Shown here: positions 48,360 to 55,285 of the stretch, in pieces | How the letters are laid out: the number at the start of each line of letters is the position of its first letter | Position numbering within the stretch: the first letter of the stretch is position 1 | From: Pseudomonadota bacterium | GTDB lineage: Bacteria > Pseudomonadota > Gammaproteobacteria > Steroidobacterales > Steroidobacteraceae | DNA: 64,000 bases | Direction: 5' to 3' | Assembly (NCBI GenBank): GCA_947454465.1 | Contig: CANGJP010000005.1 | Location: 1,565 to 65,564, forward strand | Position numbers and translations under genes: made by a program | The notes under the pieces: generated by a model | Told to the model about the DNA's origin: nothing | Databases searched by the model: none | Seen by the model: only the letters and a program-made list of their open reading frames with translations

Positions 48360-49253
48360 GTGAAGCGGTCAGCAAAGATTCAATATGCGGTATTTCCTGT
48401 GGCCGGTCGGGGTACGCGCTTTTTGCCTGCAACCAAGGCTAGCCCTAAGGAAATGCTACCCATCGTCGATAAGCCGCTCATTCAATATGCCGCAGAAGAA
48501 GTGCTGTCTGCAGGCGTCAGCAAATTAGTCTTTGTCACCGGCAGTACTAAGCGTGCGATTGCTGATCATTTCGATTCTGATGCGGAACTGGAGGCCGAAT
48601 TGGAACAGCAGGGCAAGGCTGACTTATTGGCGGCAGTGAGGGGTATTGTTCCTTCTTGGGCGAGTTGTATTTTTATTCGACAGTCTGTGCCATTGGGGCT
48701 TGGGCATGCGGTATTGTGTGCGAAGCCAATAGTTGAAAATCAGCCTTTCTTTGTTCACTTAGCCGATGACTTGATTGACTCTTCGGTACCCTGTCTCAAG
48801 CAAATGGCCGAAGTTTATGAACAACGCGAATGCAGCGTGCTTGGGGTAGAAACTGTACCGATGGAAGAAACCTATAAGTACGGTATCGTGGCCACAGAAG
48901 CGTGCCAGGGTCGATTAAGTCGGGTGACCAAAATTGTAGAAAAACCCAAGCCTGTCAATGCCCCCTCTAATTTAGCTGTCGTGGGGCGTTATATTTTGAC
49001 GGGCAGGATTTTTGAAAAGTTAGAAAAAACGGGGCGGGGTGCCGGTGGTGAGATTCAATTAACCGATGCCATTGCGGATTTACTTGCAGATGAGTCTGTG
49101 TATGCCTACGAGTTTGATGGCAAGCGTTACGATTGTGGTAGTAAGCTGGGTTATCTGCAGGCGACCGTCGAATATGCATTGAAGCATGAGTCACTCGGTG
49201 GACCGTTTGAGCGGTACCTGCGTGAACTGACAGGGCAGTTTAAGAATCAATAA
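48360..49253 (+). CDS. galU: UTP--glucose-1-phosphate uridylyltransferase
   Basis: [41 protein letters not shown] 48360 (GGAG upstream) fits GalU N-termini. The ORF-track start 48201 would add 53 non-homologous residues across the repeat region. Confidence 0.9.
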
Positions 49254-49779
49254 TATGTCGGTGGATTTACTGAGTTGCTCACCGAGAATCAATCAACGGT
49301 GTGTCGTGAATGCTGTGTCGGCAGCGCTTTAAACATGAAAGTACTCTCAGTCTGTTTCTTCATGTGTAGTCTTTTTTGATCAGCGCCATGACGCTCAACT
49401 TAAACTAAGGAATTTATTGGCAGCGCTAAGGAGTGCTGTCAGTCCGATGCGCTTAGTGTTTGGGTTTGTATCATGGCTGCGATGGGGACGGTCATGGCGA
49501 GGTGGGCATGGTGGGCGCGTTTGGCGTGTGGTCGCTAGCCGTTCAAGGGTGAGTATCCCTACCGTCTAGTGTGTTTTGAGCGTGGTAGGGCGTTGGGTTT
49601 GATCCGCTGGGGGAACTAGGGGCTTTCCCTGGAGGTGGATGCGCAGTATGGGGCATGAGGTATACTGCCCAGTGTGTATCAATGTGAACAGTTATCGAGT
49701 GTTTTGTGAGTTCGTGTCTGACCTGACACAGCGTCTTGATACTTGCGCGCTGTTTTGGGAAGTGTAGTTGGGGGGTGTC

Positions 49780-50436
49780 ATGCTTCAGTTTTTTAGGCGT
49801 CTGATTGTGCTGTGGTTGGTGGGTTCTGGTCTGTCGGTAATGGCTGCGCCGCCGGCTGTGTCCATGGCCGTTGAAGGCAATGATTACAAATTACTCACCC
49901 CTGCTCAAGCCACCGCAGATCCAAAAAAGATTGTGGTCAGTGAATTCTTTTCTTACCAATGCTCACATTGCTATGTGTTTTATCCCGTGGTCACCAGTTG
50001 GGCGGCTAAATTACCAAAGGATGTATTGTTTGAGCGGGTGCCAATTTCTTTAGGGCGTGCAGCATGGCAGCCTGTCGCACAGGCCTTTTATGCCTTGCAG
50101 GTCATGGGTAAGGTGGAGCAGATGGATTCATTGATTTTCAGTGCAATCCATACGCAAAAAACGTTGATGTATGACGAACAAAGCGTGACTAAGTTTGTTG
50201 CTCAGCATGGTGTGAATGCCGCTGACTTCACGGCGGCCTATAACTCATTCGGTGTAAAGTCTAGTTTCTTGGCTGCAGAACAGAAAATGAAGTCCCATAA
50301 GGTTCAGGGAACGCCCACTATGGTGGTGGACGGAAAGTACATCGTAAATGGCGAAGGGACTAAAGGCTATGAAGAATTGCTACAGCGTACTGATAGGGTG
50401 ATTGCACTGGCCCGAGCTGAACGATCGCGTAAATAA
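49780..50436 (+). CDS. dsbA: thiol:disulfide interchange protein DsbA
   Basis: Signal peptide, active site FFSYQCSHCY (CxxC), cis-Pro region GTPTMVV. ATG 49780 (ORF-track TTG 49768). Confidence 0.92.
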   Translation: MLQFFRRLIVLWLVGSGLSVMAAPPAVSMAVEGNDYKLLTPAQATADPKKIVVSEFFSYQCSHCYVFYPVVTSWAAKLPKDVLFERVPISLGRAAWQPVAQAFYALQVMGKVEQMDSLIFSAIHTQKTLMYDEQSVTKFVAQHGVNAADFTAAYNSFGVKSSFLAAEQKMKSHKVQGTPTMVVDGKYIVNGEGTKGYEELLQRTDRVIALARAERSRK

Positions 50437-50508: not shown

Positions 50509-51494
<986 letters not shown>

Positions 51495-51680
51495 TTAGAA
51501 ATTGATGCAGCGATTGTATGCATAGCTGAGCTTGCCGCATAGCGCAGCGCGGGTTGATGCAACGTCAGTGCCTTGTTACGGTCAAAACTTAAGAGAAAGC
51601 AGTGATTATTCGGTAATAATGCCTACGCGCAGCAATATCAGCAAAGCTGCTGCCAGCACAGTCGGGGATAAGGGTTGCAG

Positions 51681-51971
51681 ATGAATGAATTGTCAAAAAA
51701 AGTGATATATCGATTCCTGATTTCCGGTCGCGTTCAGGGTGTGTTTTACCGCGCCAGTACCCGTGAGCAGGCACACAAACTGAATCTGACAGGCCATGCG
51801 AAAAATCTGCCGGACGGCAGAGTTGAAGTGCTGGCCTGTGGTGACCTCATTGCCATCGACAATCTTGAACGGTGGTTATGGCAGGGCCCGATGGGCGCAG
51901 AAGTCCTGGACGTGGAAAAACAGCTTGTAGAGTCGGTGGCTGAATCAATCAATGGTTTTGGAATTTACTGA
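51681..51971 (+). CDS. acyP: acylphosphatase
   Basis: ISGRVQGVFYRASTREQAHKLNLTGHAKNLPDGRVEV signature. ATG 51681 (ORF-track TTG 51675). Confidence 0.9.
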   Translation: MNELSKKVIYRFLISGRVQGVFYRASTREQAHKLNLTGHAKNLPDGRVEVLACGDLIAIDNLERWLWQGPMGAEVLDVEKQLVESVAESINGFGIY

Positions 51972-52060
51972 TTGATCGTTGATACCGATCGTTTTGCTAA
52001 CCATATAAAACCTACGGACTCGTGCTTCAATCCTTTCAAACACGTCGTGTACATATGACC

Positions 52061-52170
52061 ACCCAACGCCGAGCTAAGCGGCAGGACAAACCGGCGCGAC
52101 AAGGCGAAGCAGCGCCGGTTTGGACTGTCCAGTGAGCGTAGCGAACGAGCTTGAGCGACTTGTTAGGGCT
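52061..52170 (-). other. attC-like (59-base-element) integron recombination site
   Basis: Minus strand reads AG-CCCTAAC(R'')-AAGTC-GCTCAAGC(L'', one extra base)...CAAACCGGCGC/14-nt loop/GCGCCGGTTTG...GCTTAGC(L')-TCGGC-GTTGGGT(R', GTTRRRY). About 108 nt. The boxes closely resemble the aadA-type 59-be as I recall it (..CTAACAATTCGTTCAAGC...GCTTAACTCAAGCGTTAGAT). Confidence 0.65.
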
Positions 52171-52197
52171 TGACATGGTTATTTATACAGATATATT
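52170..52197 (+). promoter_or_regulatory. near-consensus sigma70 promoter for the methyltransferase gene
   Basis: TTGACA (52170-52175) - 16 nt - TATATT (52192-52197). AAGGAAA SD at 52221-52227, ATG at 52234. The -35 abuts the attC R'' box. Confidence 0.6.
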
Positions 52198-52233
52198 TGG
52201 TACTGTCTATGGGTTTCGCAAAGGAAACTAGCC

Positions 52234-53664
52234 ATGAGTACCGAAATTGGCATTAAAGAAGCCGCTTTACAACTGGACATTAGTGAACAAAGGGTTAGAA
52301 CCTTGTGTCGTCAGGGAGACCTAAAATCTCGAAAAATTGGGAATACCTGGCTCATAACTCAAGCAAGTATTGATAAATATGGCCTTAGAACGGCACATAA
52401 GGTGGCCGAAGATCACCCTGCTTACGATGTTTCTGGAATTAACTCCACTAGGCCAATAGCGTTAAGTTTTTTCTCTGGAGCGATGGGGCTTGATCTTGGA
52501 ATTGAAAAAGCTGGATTTCATGTAAGGCTTGCGTGCGAGGTTGATAAATTCTGTAGGCAGACGATAGCCTTAAACCGCCCCAATACGGCTTTGCTTGGGG
52601 ACATAAATGAGTACACGGGAAAGGACATACTAAAAGCAGCCGGGCTTTGCAAGAAGGATGACATAGACCTAATTGTTGGAGGCCCACCCTGCCAAGCATT
52701 TAGTACGGCAGGAAAACGACAAGGGTTTAATGACGACAGAGGAAACGTATTTCTCAAATATCTTGATTTAGCTTTAGAACTACGACCTAAGTATTTAGTT
52801 ATTGAAAATGTTAGAGGCTTGCTTTCCTGCCCAATGGAGCACAGACCACACGAACTTAGAGGGGATGGATTTCCTGATTTATCAGAAGATGAATTAAAAG
52901 GTGGCGCACTAAATTTCATTATTAAAAGGTTAGAAAAATCTGGGTATGGATATTCGTTTAACTTATACAATTCTGCAAATTTTGGTACGCCACAGATTAG
53001 AGAGAGAGTAATAATAATTTGCTCTAGAGATGGAAGAAAACCACCATTTCTAGTTCCAACTCATTCAGAGAATGGTGAGCATGGACTGCCAAAGTGGAGA
53101 ACCCTTAAATCATGCATACAAAAAACTGAAGAGCACCATCACCTGACTTTTCCAGAAAAACGCCTGAAATATTATCGAATGCTAAAGCCCGGACAAAACT
53201 GGAAGGATTTGCCTGAAAAACTTCAAAAAGAAGCAATGGGACAGTCATTTTATGCGGGCGGAGGAAAGACTGGTTTCTTAAGAAGACTGGCTTGGAACAG
53301 GCCTGCTCCTACGCTTGTAACTCATCCAGCAATGCCTGCTACAGACCTTGCTCACCCCGAAGAAGATAGGCCGCTTTCTATTGAGGAGTACAAACGCATT
53401 CAAGAATTTCCTGATGACTGGGTGCTTGCTGGCCCATTGATTCAACAATACAAGCAAATAGGCAATGCAGTGCCACTCAGCTTGGGTTGCGCTGTTGGTA
53501 ATGTGATAAAAGATCTCTTATCCAGAAGAAATGTTGTGAATATTTCAAATTTTCAGTATTCACGATACAAAAACACTTCTCATGAAGAGTGGATAGCTCA
53601 ATTTAAGCAGCAAATAAGAAAACACAAGGCGGATTACAAGCAACAAGAATTGGGTTTTGGCTGA
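52234..53664 (+). CDS. DNA (cytosine-5)-methyltransferase with N-terminal helix-turn-helix domain (type II M subunit)
   Basis: aa ~5-50 excisionase/MerR-like HTH ([35 protein letters not shown]). m5C motifs [69 protein letters not shown]. Confidence 0.93.
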
Positions 53665-53681
53665 AAGCCAAAACCCAATTC
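53647..53681. terminator. perfect 16-bp hairpin between convergent M and R genes (bidirectional terminator candidate)
   Basis: GAATTGGGTTTTGGCT (53647-53662) / GAA / AGCCAAAACCCAATTC (53666-53681). The M stop codon TGA (53662-53664) sits at the loop. Confidence 0.7.
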
Positions 53682-53687
53682 ATTGTT

Positions 53688-54419
53688 TTATTGCCATGGG
53701 TTTTCATTTTCTACAGCCAGGCAGTTAGGATTGTTTTTGATCGTTGATTTTACGAAATTAACAAATTCGACTTCGCTTAAGTTTTTTGTTTTGCATATTG
53801 TATTTAGCTTAGACCACATATATTCGATTCGATCCGCTTTTATTCGGTACCACTTTTTGATTTCCGTTCCATCTCTTACTGCGCTACTTGAACTATTTTC
53901 AGAATTACTTCGATTTTTGATTTGTAACAAACTTCCATCTTCATTAACAAAATCAACAGACCTGACTGTTTCTCCCCATGCGCAGTGCCATCCATGTTTT
54001 TTGAGGTTTATTGATAGATATTCCTCCAGCATTAAGCCAAGAATATTTTCTGCTGACATACCAAGACGATGTGCGTAAGTTGCTTTATTTAAATCATCTT
54101 TCGTTAAGGAGGTAAGCCTTGCCCCAATAATTTCTTCAATTATTGGATCGGGGATTGTGCCGGGTGGATTTGATATTCTTTTGCTTGCCCGACCTTCCAT
54201 GCCTGCTTGATATTTTTGCAGCCATTTTTGTATAGCTGAACGCTCATCATCACTTCCTCCGCCGATATTGCCCGGTACGCGATCTGGGTCATTTGCTACG
54301 ATTTTGAAGACGAAGCTGACACTTCCTTCCCAATCTAACCCCATCTCATTGGCTAGTTGTCGGGCCAGACCCGATGATCGTTTTTCGCCTAGTTTTTGAA
54401 TTGCATCTTTAAGTTTCAA
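53688..54419 (-). CDS. putative type II restriction endonuclease (PD-(D/E)XK-like)
   Basis: 243 aa, convergent with and 23 nt from the m5C MTase. Candidate catalytic D156-X9-Q166-I-K168 (VDFVNEDGSLLQIK). TTG start with GGAG 7 nt upstream. AT-rich like the M gene. I cannot assign a family by eye. Confidence 0.65.
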   Translation of the reverse strand: MKLKDAIQKLGEKRSSGLARQLANEMGLDWEGSVSFVFKIVANDPDRVPGNIGGGSDDERSAIQKWLQKYQAGMEGRASKRISNPPGTIPDPIIEEIIGARLTSLTKDDLNKATYAHRLGMSAENILGLMLEEYLSINLKKHGWHCAWGETVRSVDFVNEDGSLLQIKNRSNSENSSSSAVRDGTEIKKWYRIKADRIEYMWSKLNTICKTKNLSEVEFVNFVKSTIKNNPNCLAVENENPWQ

Positions 54420-54691
54420 AATTAACTCCGATTTTGGATTGGAAAGCCCTAACTAGAAATAGACGACGGTGATATGGGGCCACATGTCCCTTTACAAAGG
54501 GACTTAGTACTGTATGCGTTAGCAGCCATTCCAATGTCTCCTTTGATTTTCAGTTGGTTAGGTCTTTGTAGCACGCACTATCAGAAAACAGCAATTACGA
54601 CATTGGAGGGTTAATGGAAGAGTCCAACCTCGTACATTGGATCACAGGTAATGCAGGTTGGTGCTGAGTGAAATTCAGCCCGTCTATGGCG

Positions 54692-55285
54692 CTATTTGAA
54701 CTGCCATTTATTCGCCAACCTCACCAGCACCAGGTCTGAATAATTGCGTCGGCCAAGGCTGCCGTTATAGCGTGCTAACGCTCGTGCGTAGTCGCCTCGT
54801 TCAAGTTCAAGATAGTATTTGAGAATGGTGCAGCCCATGCGGATGTTATGGCTGATGTCGAGCAGTTGATGATTCTGCATGCCGAGCTGGCTTGGCCAAA
54901 ATGGCATGACTTGCATCAATCCCACTGCCCCTGCTGAGGACGTGGCCCAGCGGTTAAAGCGACTTTCTACATCGATCACTGCCATGACTAGACTGGGAGG
55001 CAGTTGTAGGCGTTTTGATTCGCACTGCACTTGTTCAAGTATCTGGCTGCGCTCATCCTCATTGGCGACCAGTGGTTTAAGTCTAGGTTCCATACTTGCA
55101 AACCAAACCGCGCGATCGTATTTGTCTTCAAAGCATTTGCCATCTGACAGGGCCTGTTTGAGAAGGGGTCCCAGGGCGAGGTCTTGTTGTTGATTGGCGT
55201 GGGCGTCAAGGCACCCCAGGATTAGGCTGGTGAGCAGGGCTAGGGTCAGGAGCGATTTAGGTGAAAAAATATTCATGTGCTGCAC
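54692..55285 (-). CDS. lytic transglycosylase (SLT domain), secreted
   Basis: Signal peptide. Catalytic region VMAVIDVESRFNRWATSSAGAVGLMQVMP. Confidence 0.88.
   Translation of the reverse strand: MQHMNIFSPKSLLTLALLTSLILGCLDAHANQQQDLALGPLLKQALSDGKCFEDKYDRAVWFASMEPRLKPLVANEDERSQILEQVQCESKRLQLPPSLVMAVIDVESRFNRWATSSAGAVGLMQVMPFWPSQLGMQNHQLLDISHNIRMGCTILKYYLELERGDYARALARYNGSLGRRNYSDLVLVRLANKWQFK

Follow-up and report, generated by a model that had tools for sequence, protein, structure and literature searches.

Single attC sites lacking an integron-integrase, termed SALINs, number 3,400 in RefSeq, and the integron-integrase (IntI) has been shown experimentally to insert cassettes genome-wide at attG sites, for which the consensus is GWT (10.1101/2022.09.11.507474). 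Restriction-modification (R-M) systems such as XbaI in Xanthomonas are carried in cassettes (PMC10661359). In the 64-kb stretch of Steroidobacteraceae contig CANGJP010000005.1 analysed here (the window, whose numbering is used throughout), the segment at 52067-54453 on the minus strand, 2,387 bp in length, is very probably an integron gene cassette. It lies between the convergent acyP and slt genes and consists, in order along the cassette strand, of a gene for a SinI-family Type II endonuclease (R), a convergent gene for a helix-turn-helix-fused C5 cytosine DNA methyltransferase (M) and a 108-nt attC site. Its extent is defined by junctions that are common to the inserts of relatives and by the same ends found elsewhere. 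Judged from the sequences compared, the place that it occupies is a locus at which cassettes recur, and at least five alleles of one or two cassettes each occur at one junction. The original prediction, made from the letters of the window, was of a single cassette with a complete R-M system and no integrase.

The attC site was placed at 52061-52168 on the minus strand by a covariance model, BLAST, a strict descriptor and its paired helices. Along this strand, R'' (CCCTAAC, 52162-52168) is followed by the spacer AAGTC and by L'' (GCT[C]AAGC, 52149-52156), the extrahelical C of which corresponds to G52153 on the plus strand. After a further 26 nt come the GC-rich arms of the 11-bp inner stem, CAAACCGGCGC and GCGCCGGTTTG (52112-52122 and 52087-52097, repeat I3), on either side of a 14-nt loop, and then TCCTGCC, L' (GCTTAGC, 52073-52079), the spacer TCGGC and R' (GTTGGGT, 52061-52067), an exact match to GTTRRRY. 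Every element of the predicted layout was found on the predicted strand and at the predicted position; for the R'' box the position stood, and the sequence has one mismatch to RYYYAAC, its first base being C.

The strict descriptor allowed at most one mismatch in total in the R boxes and required a 7/7 L helix, one bulged L'' base and spacers of 4-6 nt. It called one site in the window, this attC, against 0.1 expected per simulated 64 kb. In a positive control, the class 3 integron on pUL3AT, it recovered both attCs, and no 7/7 false match was found across about 1.2 Mb of related syntenic loci. The covariance model was built from four attCs of integrase-bearing plasmid integrons, with the window and its R-M relatives left out, and spans only the blaOXA-10-like attC subfamily. 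The comparison with an attC model proposed in the original prediction came out in its favour, in that this model matched the site at full length and on the predicted strand (52061-52168, minus) with 92.4 bits and an E value of 9.6e-28. This was the single significant match in 64 kb, and the next-best match in the window reached 11.7 bits. Neither the descriptor nor the covariance model detected a further copy of the attC palindrome in the window. The minimum-energy fold of the minus strand reproduces the R and L helices and leaves the 5-nt spacers unpaired. Rfam contains no family for attC, and the only matches of an Rfam scan of 51800-54800 (E<=10) were spurious miRNA-like ones to the hairpin between M and R.

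A BLAST search of the locus against 72,556 plasmids (7.3 Gb) gave 41 records that match the 108-nt element. The best match (79.6% identity, E 4e-13) is the site immediately 3' of blaOXA-10-family genes, i.e. the blaOXA-10/OXA-256 attC, and weaker matches are found at three other sites. Among the matches listed (40 of the 41), all are at cassette-array positions and 35 are at blaOXA-10-family genes; of the five others listed, H16, H17 and H53 were examined together with a Shewanella record, and H54 and H55 are short and weak matches. In each of the five records opened (L114, L115, L122, L123 and L124), the match is a cassette attC inside an integron. These integrons are of class 1, of class 3 and from Shewanella, and their cassette genes lie on the strand that equals the minus strand of the window. 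The plasmids are pUL3AT (IntI3, blaOXA-256 and aac(6')-Ib, in this order), Shewanella pNi1-3 (an integron integrase and cassettes), p334D3 (aac(6')-Ib', blaIMP-13, a gcu cassette, fosE and qacEdelta1), pHH128 (intI1, dfrA1, a gcu cassette and aadA1) and pHPA0698-3, in which the OXA-17 attC is interrupted by ISPa25. This last plasmid is from P. aeruginosa, and the element that splits its blaOXA-17 attC, a homologue of the window attC, belongs to the IS110 family (L124 1353-2411).

An alignment of four attC sequences has the common frame CTAACAAGTCGCTCAAG...CTTAGCTC. Pairing is 100% in the L helix and 90.6% in the inner stem, where three pairs are compensatory, and the AAC/GTT core pairs in four of four family members. 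The extrahelical L'' base gives the window attC the same polarity as the homologous attCs have in integrons. The window attC belongs to the blaOXA-10 sequence family.

At the other end of the cassette, the minus strand reads G|TTAGGGCT (54446-54454), where G54454 is chromosomal and the cassette begins with the TT that follows (54453). The last cassette base is the G of R' (52067). G|TT bounds the cassette at both ends, and the predicted junctions are exact. A recount upheld the predicted 9-nt complementarity of this boundary to R'': nine contiguous nucleotides at the cassette start read as the R'' of the same cassette in reverse complement, and the repeat search lists this inverted repeat as I9 (13 nt, 92%; 52159-52171 versus 54444-54456). 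Nine cassettes, with seven different end sequences among them, each begin with 6-10 nt that match their own R'' in reverse complement; the stretch is 9 nt long in the window and 6-10 nt long in the eight others. The blaOXA-256 cassette of pUL3AT has the same relation of start to R'' (TTAGCCACC versus GGTGGCTAA). Such complementarity is the mark left by a circular intermediate that was closed at R', for which the predicted junction reads ...GCTTAGCTCGGCG|TTAGGGCTTTCC. The interval was also said to be AT-rich and to have the R open reading frame (ORF) about 35 nt inside the boundary, and both descriptions are accurate, as the GC content is 33-47% over 52150-54550 against about 48-59% in the flanks, and R starts at 54419 after a leader of 34 nt.

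The locus was then compared with its counterparts in relatives. Its flanking pssA gene assigns the window to the Steroidobacteraceae. The convergent acyP and slt genes adjoin each other, without R-M genes in between, in about 75 more distant genomes of this family, and the spacer that separates them is about 20-60 nt long in the outgroups L008-L010, the sequences of which were read. The closest genome, L007, has a 306-amino-acid ORF with its own 60-nt attC (minus strand, GCCCAAC-CCATC-ATT[C]AACC...GGTTAAT...GTTGGGT) at exactly the junctions of the window. Its left flank is identical to that of the window through ...CATATGACCACCCAAC, and its right flank resumes at ...GGCCCAAC|TAGAAATAGACGACGG. 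Three further alleles were reached via close acyP homologues. L117 includes two cassettes (129 and 124 amino acids), each with its own attC and each beginning with its own R'' in reverse complement. L120 includes a 130-amino-acid cassette with an attC, then a 333-amino-acid ORF, and L121 has another, different first cassette. In all four, homology to the window breaks exactly at TCTAG|TT and G|TTRGRYGGT, so that 52067 and 54453 hold to the exact base. Thus, the junctions in relatives that lack the R-M genes coincide with those that had been predicted. L007, L117 and L120 form one species-level group (wrbA 94-97% and slt 92-96% identical) with three different arrays. The cargo of the other alleles is mostly of unassigned function, and Pfam gave no match above threshold for the cassette ORFs of L007, L117 and L120.

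The 333-amino-acid ORF of L120 (2421-3422, minus) lies beside acyP and reaches the left junction, its stop codon TAG lying within GTTAGG. Only a remnant of about 38 nt, GCCTAC...GTTAGGC, stands in place of an attC, and the ORF may be a cassette with a deleted attC. Three Logan contigs assembled from short reads of the same strain as the window (L006, L002 and L004) end at 51990 and at 54477-54487, just outside the junctions; such contig ends would fit either strain heterogeneity at the locus or a nearby palindrome.

The same R-M cassette also occurs in other contexts, and the family is widespread, both alone and in arrays. In the contexts that were opened, convergent R (243 amino acids) and M (476 amino acids) genes are found in unrelated neighbourhoods. 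The cassettes of L090 and L096 begin at |TTAGGGCTTT. The L090 copy has the start ACGTG|TTAGGGCTTTCC, the same R'' and the end ...ACCGCG|ATATGC, which is a G|AT target. The attC of L096 is homologous to that of the window over the full length, and the homology ends at ...GCTTAGCTCAGCG| (...GCTTAGCTCRGCG|, last bases ...GCG|). In L104, the R-M pair stands third in an array that has two canonical attCs upstream, and in L105 an attC is located directly upstream of the pair. An R'' box and spacer are tandemly duplicated in L105 (GCCCTAACAAGCCCTAACAAG, at about 2930-2965). It had been considered beforehand that relatives might carry the same R-M genes with flanks other than attC; L096 keeps the whole attC, and both L090 and L096 keep the cassette start. 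With these ends kept in other contexts, and with junctions that other inserts share, the claim of a single cassette is sustained.

No tyrosine recombinase was found in the 64-kb window. A tblastn search with IntI1 (E<=5) gave no match either in the window or in 113 collected loci, in keeping with the prediction that the window has no integrase; Pfam confirms that the IntI1 query contains Phage_integrase and Phage_int_SAM_4. There is hence no integrase gene adjacent to the array in the window, as a complete integron would have. A single attC in 64 kb, as called by both the descriptor and the covariance model, is accompanied by coding sequences and by no integrase, and the element is therefore a SALIN.

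The cassette is framed by an upstream flank of 238 nt from the slt stop to the junction (54454-54691, minus), which is conserved, and by a downstream flank from the cassette to the acyP stop (51972-52066, minus), in which TTGGGT (52066-52061) completes a hybrid R'. The last 56 nt of the downstream flank are identical in L007 up to the junction, and the flank has homologues in L117, L119 and L120. The upstream flank lies, fixed and conserved, ahead of the first cassette and includes no sigma-70-like promoter on the cassette strand. Its mean column identity across four alleles is 93%, and it is absent from the outgroups L008-L010. Between lineages with slt genes 73-75% identical, the upstream flank is 88-92% identical. 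The window and L121 are far more distant from the group of L007, L117 and L120 (slt 73-75% identical), yet their upstream flank is 88-92% identical, and the acyP of the window is 92-97% identical. A sliding comparison of the window with L007 gave 88-98% identity at about 51350-54700 (cassettes excluded) against a background of 75-80%. This high-identity tract of about 1 kb comprises the 5' end of wrbA, acyP and both flanks, the flanks and acyP being 88-97% identical where wrbA and slt are only 73-79% identical. From these identities, the tract seems to have been imported recently by homologous recombination, across the cassette site, and the comparison suggests that the locus has also passed between species by homologous recombination.

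The origin of acyP and further features of the flanks were noted alongside. Among the acyP matches listed, the best named ones outside its own clade are from Rhodanobacteraceae (Fulvimonas, Frateuria and Dyella), with 61-75% identity over 72-89% of the query, and the one named Steroidobacteraceae match among those listed has 66% identity; there is a hint here that acyP itself was imported with the high-identity tract. The upstream flank includes a palindrome, GTCCCTTTACAAAGGGAC (54486-54503), located 32-50 nt upstream of the crossover point. It is kept in five of five alleles (the L120 copy has a single mismatch), no T-run follows it, and it could be a protein-binding site. A small cassette-strand ORF ending at the junction (MAANAYSTKSLCKGTC...) was not treated as a gene, because all three substitutions between the window and L007 are non-synonymous, as are most of those across four alleles (by eye). 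A 63-amino-acid ORF in the right flank (54473-54668 on the plus strand of the window, 3003-3194 in L117 and about 9020-9211 in L007) reads away from the junction. Its frame is open in L007 and L117 and broken by a frameshift in the window and in L120. Pfam gives no match to it, and only two clusters represent it among 5.8 billion proteins; it is unlikely to be a functional gene. The joined flanks were rejected as an old attC, as no R''/L'' partner for GTTGGGT was found upstream by eye or with the descriptor. A second variable spot is present about 2.5 kb from the cassette locus, in the interval upstream of dsbA: the sequence at about 49240-49780 cannot be aligned with L007 (large gaps), and L116 and one ENA contig have a gene for a 583-amino-acid Peptidase_S8 protein upstream of dsbA.

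Taken as a whole, the favoured account of a lone cassette inserted by IntI at a recurrent integrase-less locus is considered highly likely. As the integrase is not in the 64-kb window, it must have acted in trans. IntI would have recombined the folded bottom strand of the attC (the plus strand of the window, with the extrahelical G52153) with a chromosomal G|TT, the donor being a circular cassette and the target the acyP-slt spacer of a Steroidobacteraceae chromosome. The resulting hybrid ends would read chromosome-G|TTAGGGCT... (start) and ...attC-G|TTGGGT-chromosome (end). IntI is presumed to excise and integrate this particular attC. Later exchanges would have used the same junction or the resident attC, and two processes would be at work: cassettes would turn over fast at a fixed junction, and homologous recombination would spread the entire locus horizontally. 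With its changing occupants, the locus acts like a small cassette platform that lacks an integrase. The original prediction of capture at a secondary GTT site between acyP and slt is therefore right in that the cassette lies at G|TT, but the event was not a one-off, the locus being recurrent and its flanks conserved.

Several observations weigh against this account. No integrase was seen in the window, and the recombinase is thus inferred. The R'' box starts with C in place of a purine. The folding energy of the site is unexceptional (z -1.3 and -1.8), and folding energy was rejected as a test for attC, these values being not discriminating. The second ORF of L120 is without a canonical attC, and L096 has A, not G, before the cassette TT. 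The empty site was reconstructed as ...CACCGTCGTCTATTTCTAG|TTGGGTGGTCATATG..., also given as CACCGTCGTCTATTTCTAG|TTGGGTGGTCATATGTACACG; the literal form that relatives were predicted to carry was not found, and a metagenome scan with a 21-mer of the left flank gave 0 matches. Furthermore, the flanks sum to about 330 nt, against 20-60 nt for the acyP-slt spacer of the outgroups, and the original target was therefore not the ancestral spacer.

Tentatively, these flanks of about 330 nt (51972-52066 and 54454-54691) could form an orphan platform, similar to attI, at which cassettes dock, i.e. part of a split integron with the integrase elsewhere; alternatively, the flank may simply hitchhike. An integrase located elsewhere in the genome or on a visiting element would then load and exchange cassettes repeatedly, and the platform would spread between Steroidobacteraceae species by homologous recombination.

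A different possibility, a narrow form of the original prediction and also held to be rather doubtful, is that one chance capture took place at an ordinary G|TT of the attG type and that the later alleles arose by attC x attC exchange with the resident attC. Insertion by IntI at GWT sites has been shown and SALINs are common (10.1101/2022.09.11.507474). The L090 copy is located at G|AT with no other attC called nearby, and attC x attC exchange would, from established chemistry, keep both outer junctions. However, an ordinary capture of this kind explains neither the identity of the flank (88-92%) against that of slt (73-75%) nor the origin of the extra flank of about 280 nt.

It is unlikely that the locus is the remnant of a chromosomal integron that formerly had intI and attI between the first cassette and slt, and from which intI was deleted to leave a SALIN or a group of clustered attCs without integrase (CALIN) by decay. 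Alleles would then differ through turnover that preceded the loss, or because the entire array was replaced by homologous recombination. Insertions by attI x attC recombination go to the first-cassette position, and attI sites have no general sequence signature. The first cassette does differ in every allele, the five alleles have one fixed junction upstream of it, as would be seen at an attI, and the flank of about 240 nt, absent from the outgroups, is more conserved than the neighbour genes. Against such decay, no intI fragment was found in the flanks with three IntI proteins, the best tblastn score being 19 bits against a shuffled median of 18.5 bits, and Pfam finds nothing in the flank ORF. 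A candidate in the expected orientation, EEASLVHWAK against TEKAYVYWAK of IntI3, was rejected, as it scored no better than shuffled sequence and gave nothing with Pfam. In addition, slt ends 238 nt from the junction and the acyP-slt adjacency is kept in about 75 genomes, so that intI would have to have been inserted and then cleanly removed. The three arrays within one species-level clade (wrbA and slt 92-97% identical) likewise argue for recent turnover, which needs an active integrase.

An origin unrelated to integrons, with the attC as a terminator-like or repetitive extragenic palindrome and the R-M genes as an island moved by transposition or homologous recombination alone, could draw on the frequent mobility of R-M genes without integrons, on the modest fold z-scores and on the homologous recombination seen in the high-identity tract, but is effectively refuted by the 92-bit full-length attC-model match on the correct strand, the homology to attCs inside integrase-bearing integrons, the G|TT junctions common to five inserts (each with its own attC where visible), the covariation of start and R'' and the lack of a second copy of the palindrome in the window.

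The cargo of the cassette is an R-M pair. M (52234-53664, plus strand, opposite to the cassette orientation) is a C5 cytosine DNA methyltransferase of 476 amino acids that has an HTH_17 domain at its N-terminus (Pfam E values of 5.6e-09 for HTH_17 and 2.5e-58 for DNA_methylase; TIGR00675 dcm E 3.5e-54). R (53688-54419, minus strand, in cassette orientation) is a SinI-family Type II endonuclease of 243 amino acids (Pfam RE_SinI E 2e-37). Both are full length, with 100% coverage against homologues of 243 and 476 amino acids. For R, 988 homologues were found at E<=1e-10, full length and at most 88% identical. Exact-protein look-ups of M, slt and acyP returned the same strain only.

A sigma-70-type promoter for M, TTGACA-16-TATATT (52170-52197, plus), fits at 11 of 12 positions, and its -35 box abuts R''. 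It is the only promoter-like site in 51900-54750, and the -35 box, the -10 box and the adjacency to R'' are conserved in 15 cassette relatives, in line with the earlier claim of a self-promoted M. The M leader includes the inverted repeat GTTTC-N6-GAAAC (52213-52228, plus), which overlaps the ribosome-binding region; CGAAAC is nearly invariant, and the GTTTC arm is kept in 12 of the 15 cassette relatives. By analogy with methyltransferases of the SsoII/EcoRII type, this repeat is a plausible candidate operator for the helix-turn-helix domain of M itself, or else an RNA hairpin. The start codon of R is TTG at 54419, preceded at a distance of 6 nt by the Shine-Dalgarno sequence GGAG (54426-54429) in the leader, which is inside the cassette. 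No promoter-like site was found upstream of R inside the cassette, as expected for the promoterless R in cassette orientation that had been proposed. Between R and the co-oriented slt, the minus strand has no terminator-like site either. A perfect 16-bp hairpin separates the convergent M and R genes (53647-53681, repeat I2); it is terminator-like on both strands and is probably a bidirectional terminator. M would thus be transcribed from its own conserved promoter and would probably be autoregulated via its helix-turn-helix domain, and R would rely on transcription entering from the slt side, probably by read-through. With M self-promoted and R dependent on context, methylation could precede restriction after transfer.

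Both the GGWCC specificity and the activity of the R-M pair are putative. GGWCC, the SinI site, occurs 31 times in the window against 68 expected under a third-order Markov model and is the most under-represented 5-mer (rank 1 of 1024); inside the 2.4-kb cassette its count is 0. The site is equally depleted in close relatives without this cassette (ratios of 0.37-0.59; L007, L009 and L010 were examined) and is not depleted in more distant Steroidobacter (0.74-0.87). This distribution suggests that the sub-clade has long been exposed to GGWCC-specific restriction.

The locus is a clean natural case of cassettes outside integrons, which have so far been shown mainly by laboratory work and bulk genome statistics. 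SALINs and CALINs, attG insertion and R-M cassettes are known already; less expected is an orthologous locus with at least five cassette sets and with flanks that are conserved beyond the neighbour genes. Its cargo is a complete defence system, the layout of which looks suited to safe arrival in a new host. As the attC is of the blaOXA-10 family, which is present in integrons of classes 1 and 3, IntI1 or IntI3 should allow a direct test of the cassette. The locus with its five cassette sets further provides a place to measure turnover at an integrase-less site, and allows the question of whether some SALIN or CALIN sites are real, reusable attachment sites to be asked. If the flanks were indeed an orphan docking platform, the integron would be split in two, with array and integrase at separate loci, and the site would be neither a decayed integron nor a random attG insertion.

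CALIN is reportedly a term of the IntegronFinder authors. In its likeness to SALINs and CALINs, the window has one cassette, one attC and no intI in 64 kb, L117 with two attCs at the same place is formally a CALIN, and the cargo of the other alleles is mostly functionally unassigned, as is usual for cassettes. In contrast to them, at least five cassette sets occur here at one orthologous junction, with flanks more conserved than the neighbour genes; the available text of 10.1101/2022.09.11.507474 describes no orthologous, polymorphic integrase-less site. Insertion at attG, as presented there, is matched by a location that is neither attI nor attC, at a G|TT in agreement with GWT (G|AT in the L090 copy), and by the hybrid R' formed from the cassette G and a chromosomal TT. 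However, attG sites are described as very numerous and loosely defined, whereas the site in the window has been reused, or its occupant exchanged, repeatedly. Sites of the attG type recombine as double-stranded DNA, as the site in the window may also do.

The blaOXA-10/OXA-256 attC and the gcu attCs of p334D3, pHH128 and pNi1-3 are about 75-80% identical to the window attC over approximately 100 nt. They have the same R''-spacer-L'' block CTAACAAGTCGCTCAAG, the same L' CTTAGCTC and the same GGAC...stem...GCC layout, and the window differs from them in cargo, in host, in compensatory changes of the inner stem and in the distal half of R' (TTGGGT), which is chromosomal. Like the XbaI cassette of Xanthomonas, the window cassette includes a complete Type II R-M pair in one cassette; it differs in its SinI family, its convergent genes, the M promoter fused to R'' and the N-terminal HTH_17 domain of M. 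C5 methyltransferases of the SsoII/EcoRII/MspI type regulate transcription via an N-terminal DNA-binding region, and M of the window resembles them in joining an N-terminal helix-turn-helix domain to a C5 methyltransferase and in having a conserved inverted repeat in its leader. The divergent genes of SsoII share a regulated region, whereas R and M of the window are convergent and R is without a promoter inside the unit. Finally, to the classical cassette layout the window adds a second gene, M, with a promoter of its own.

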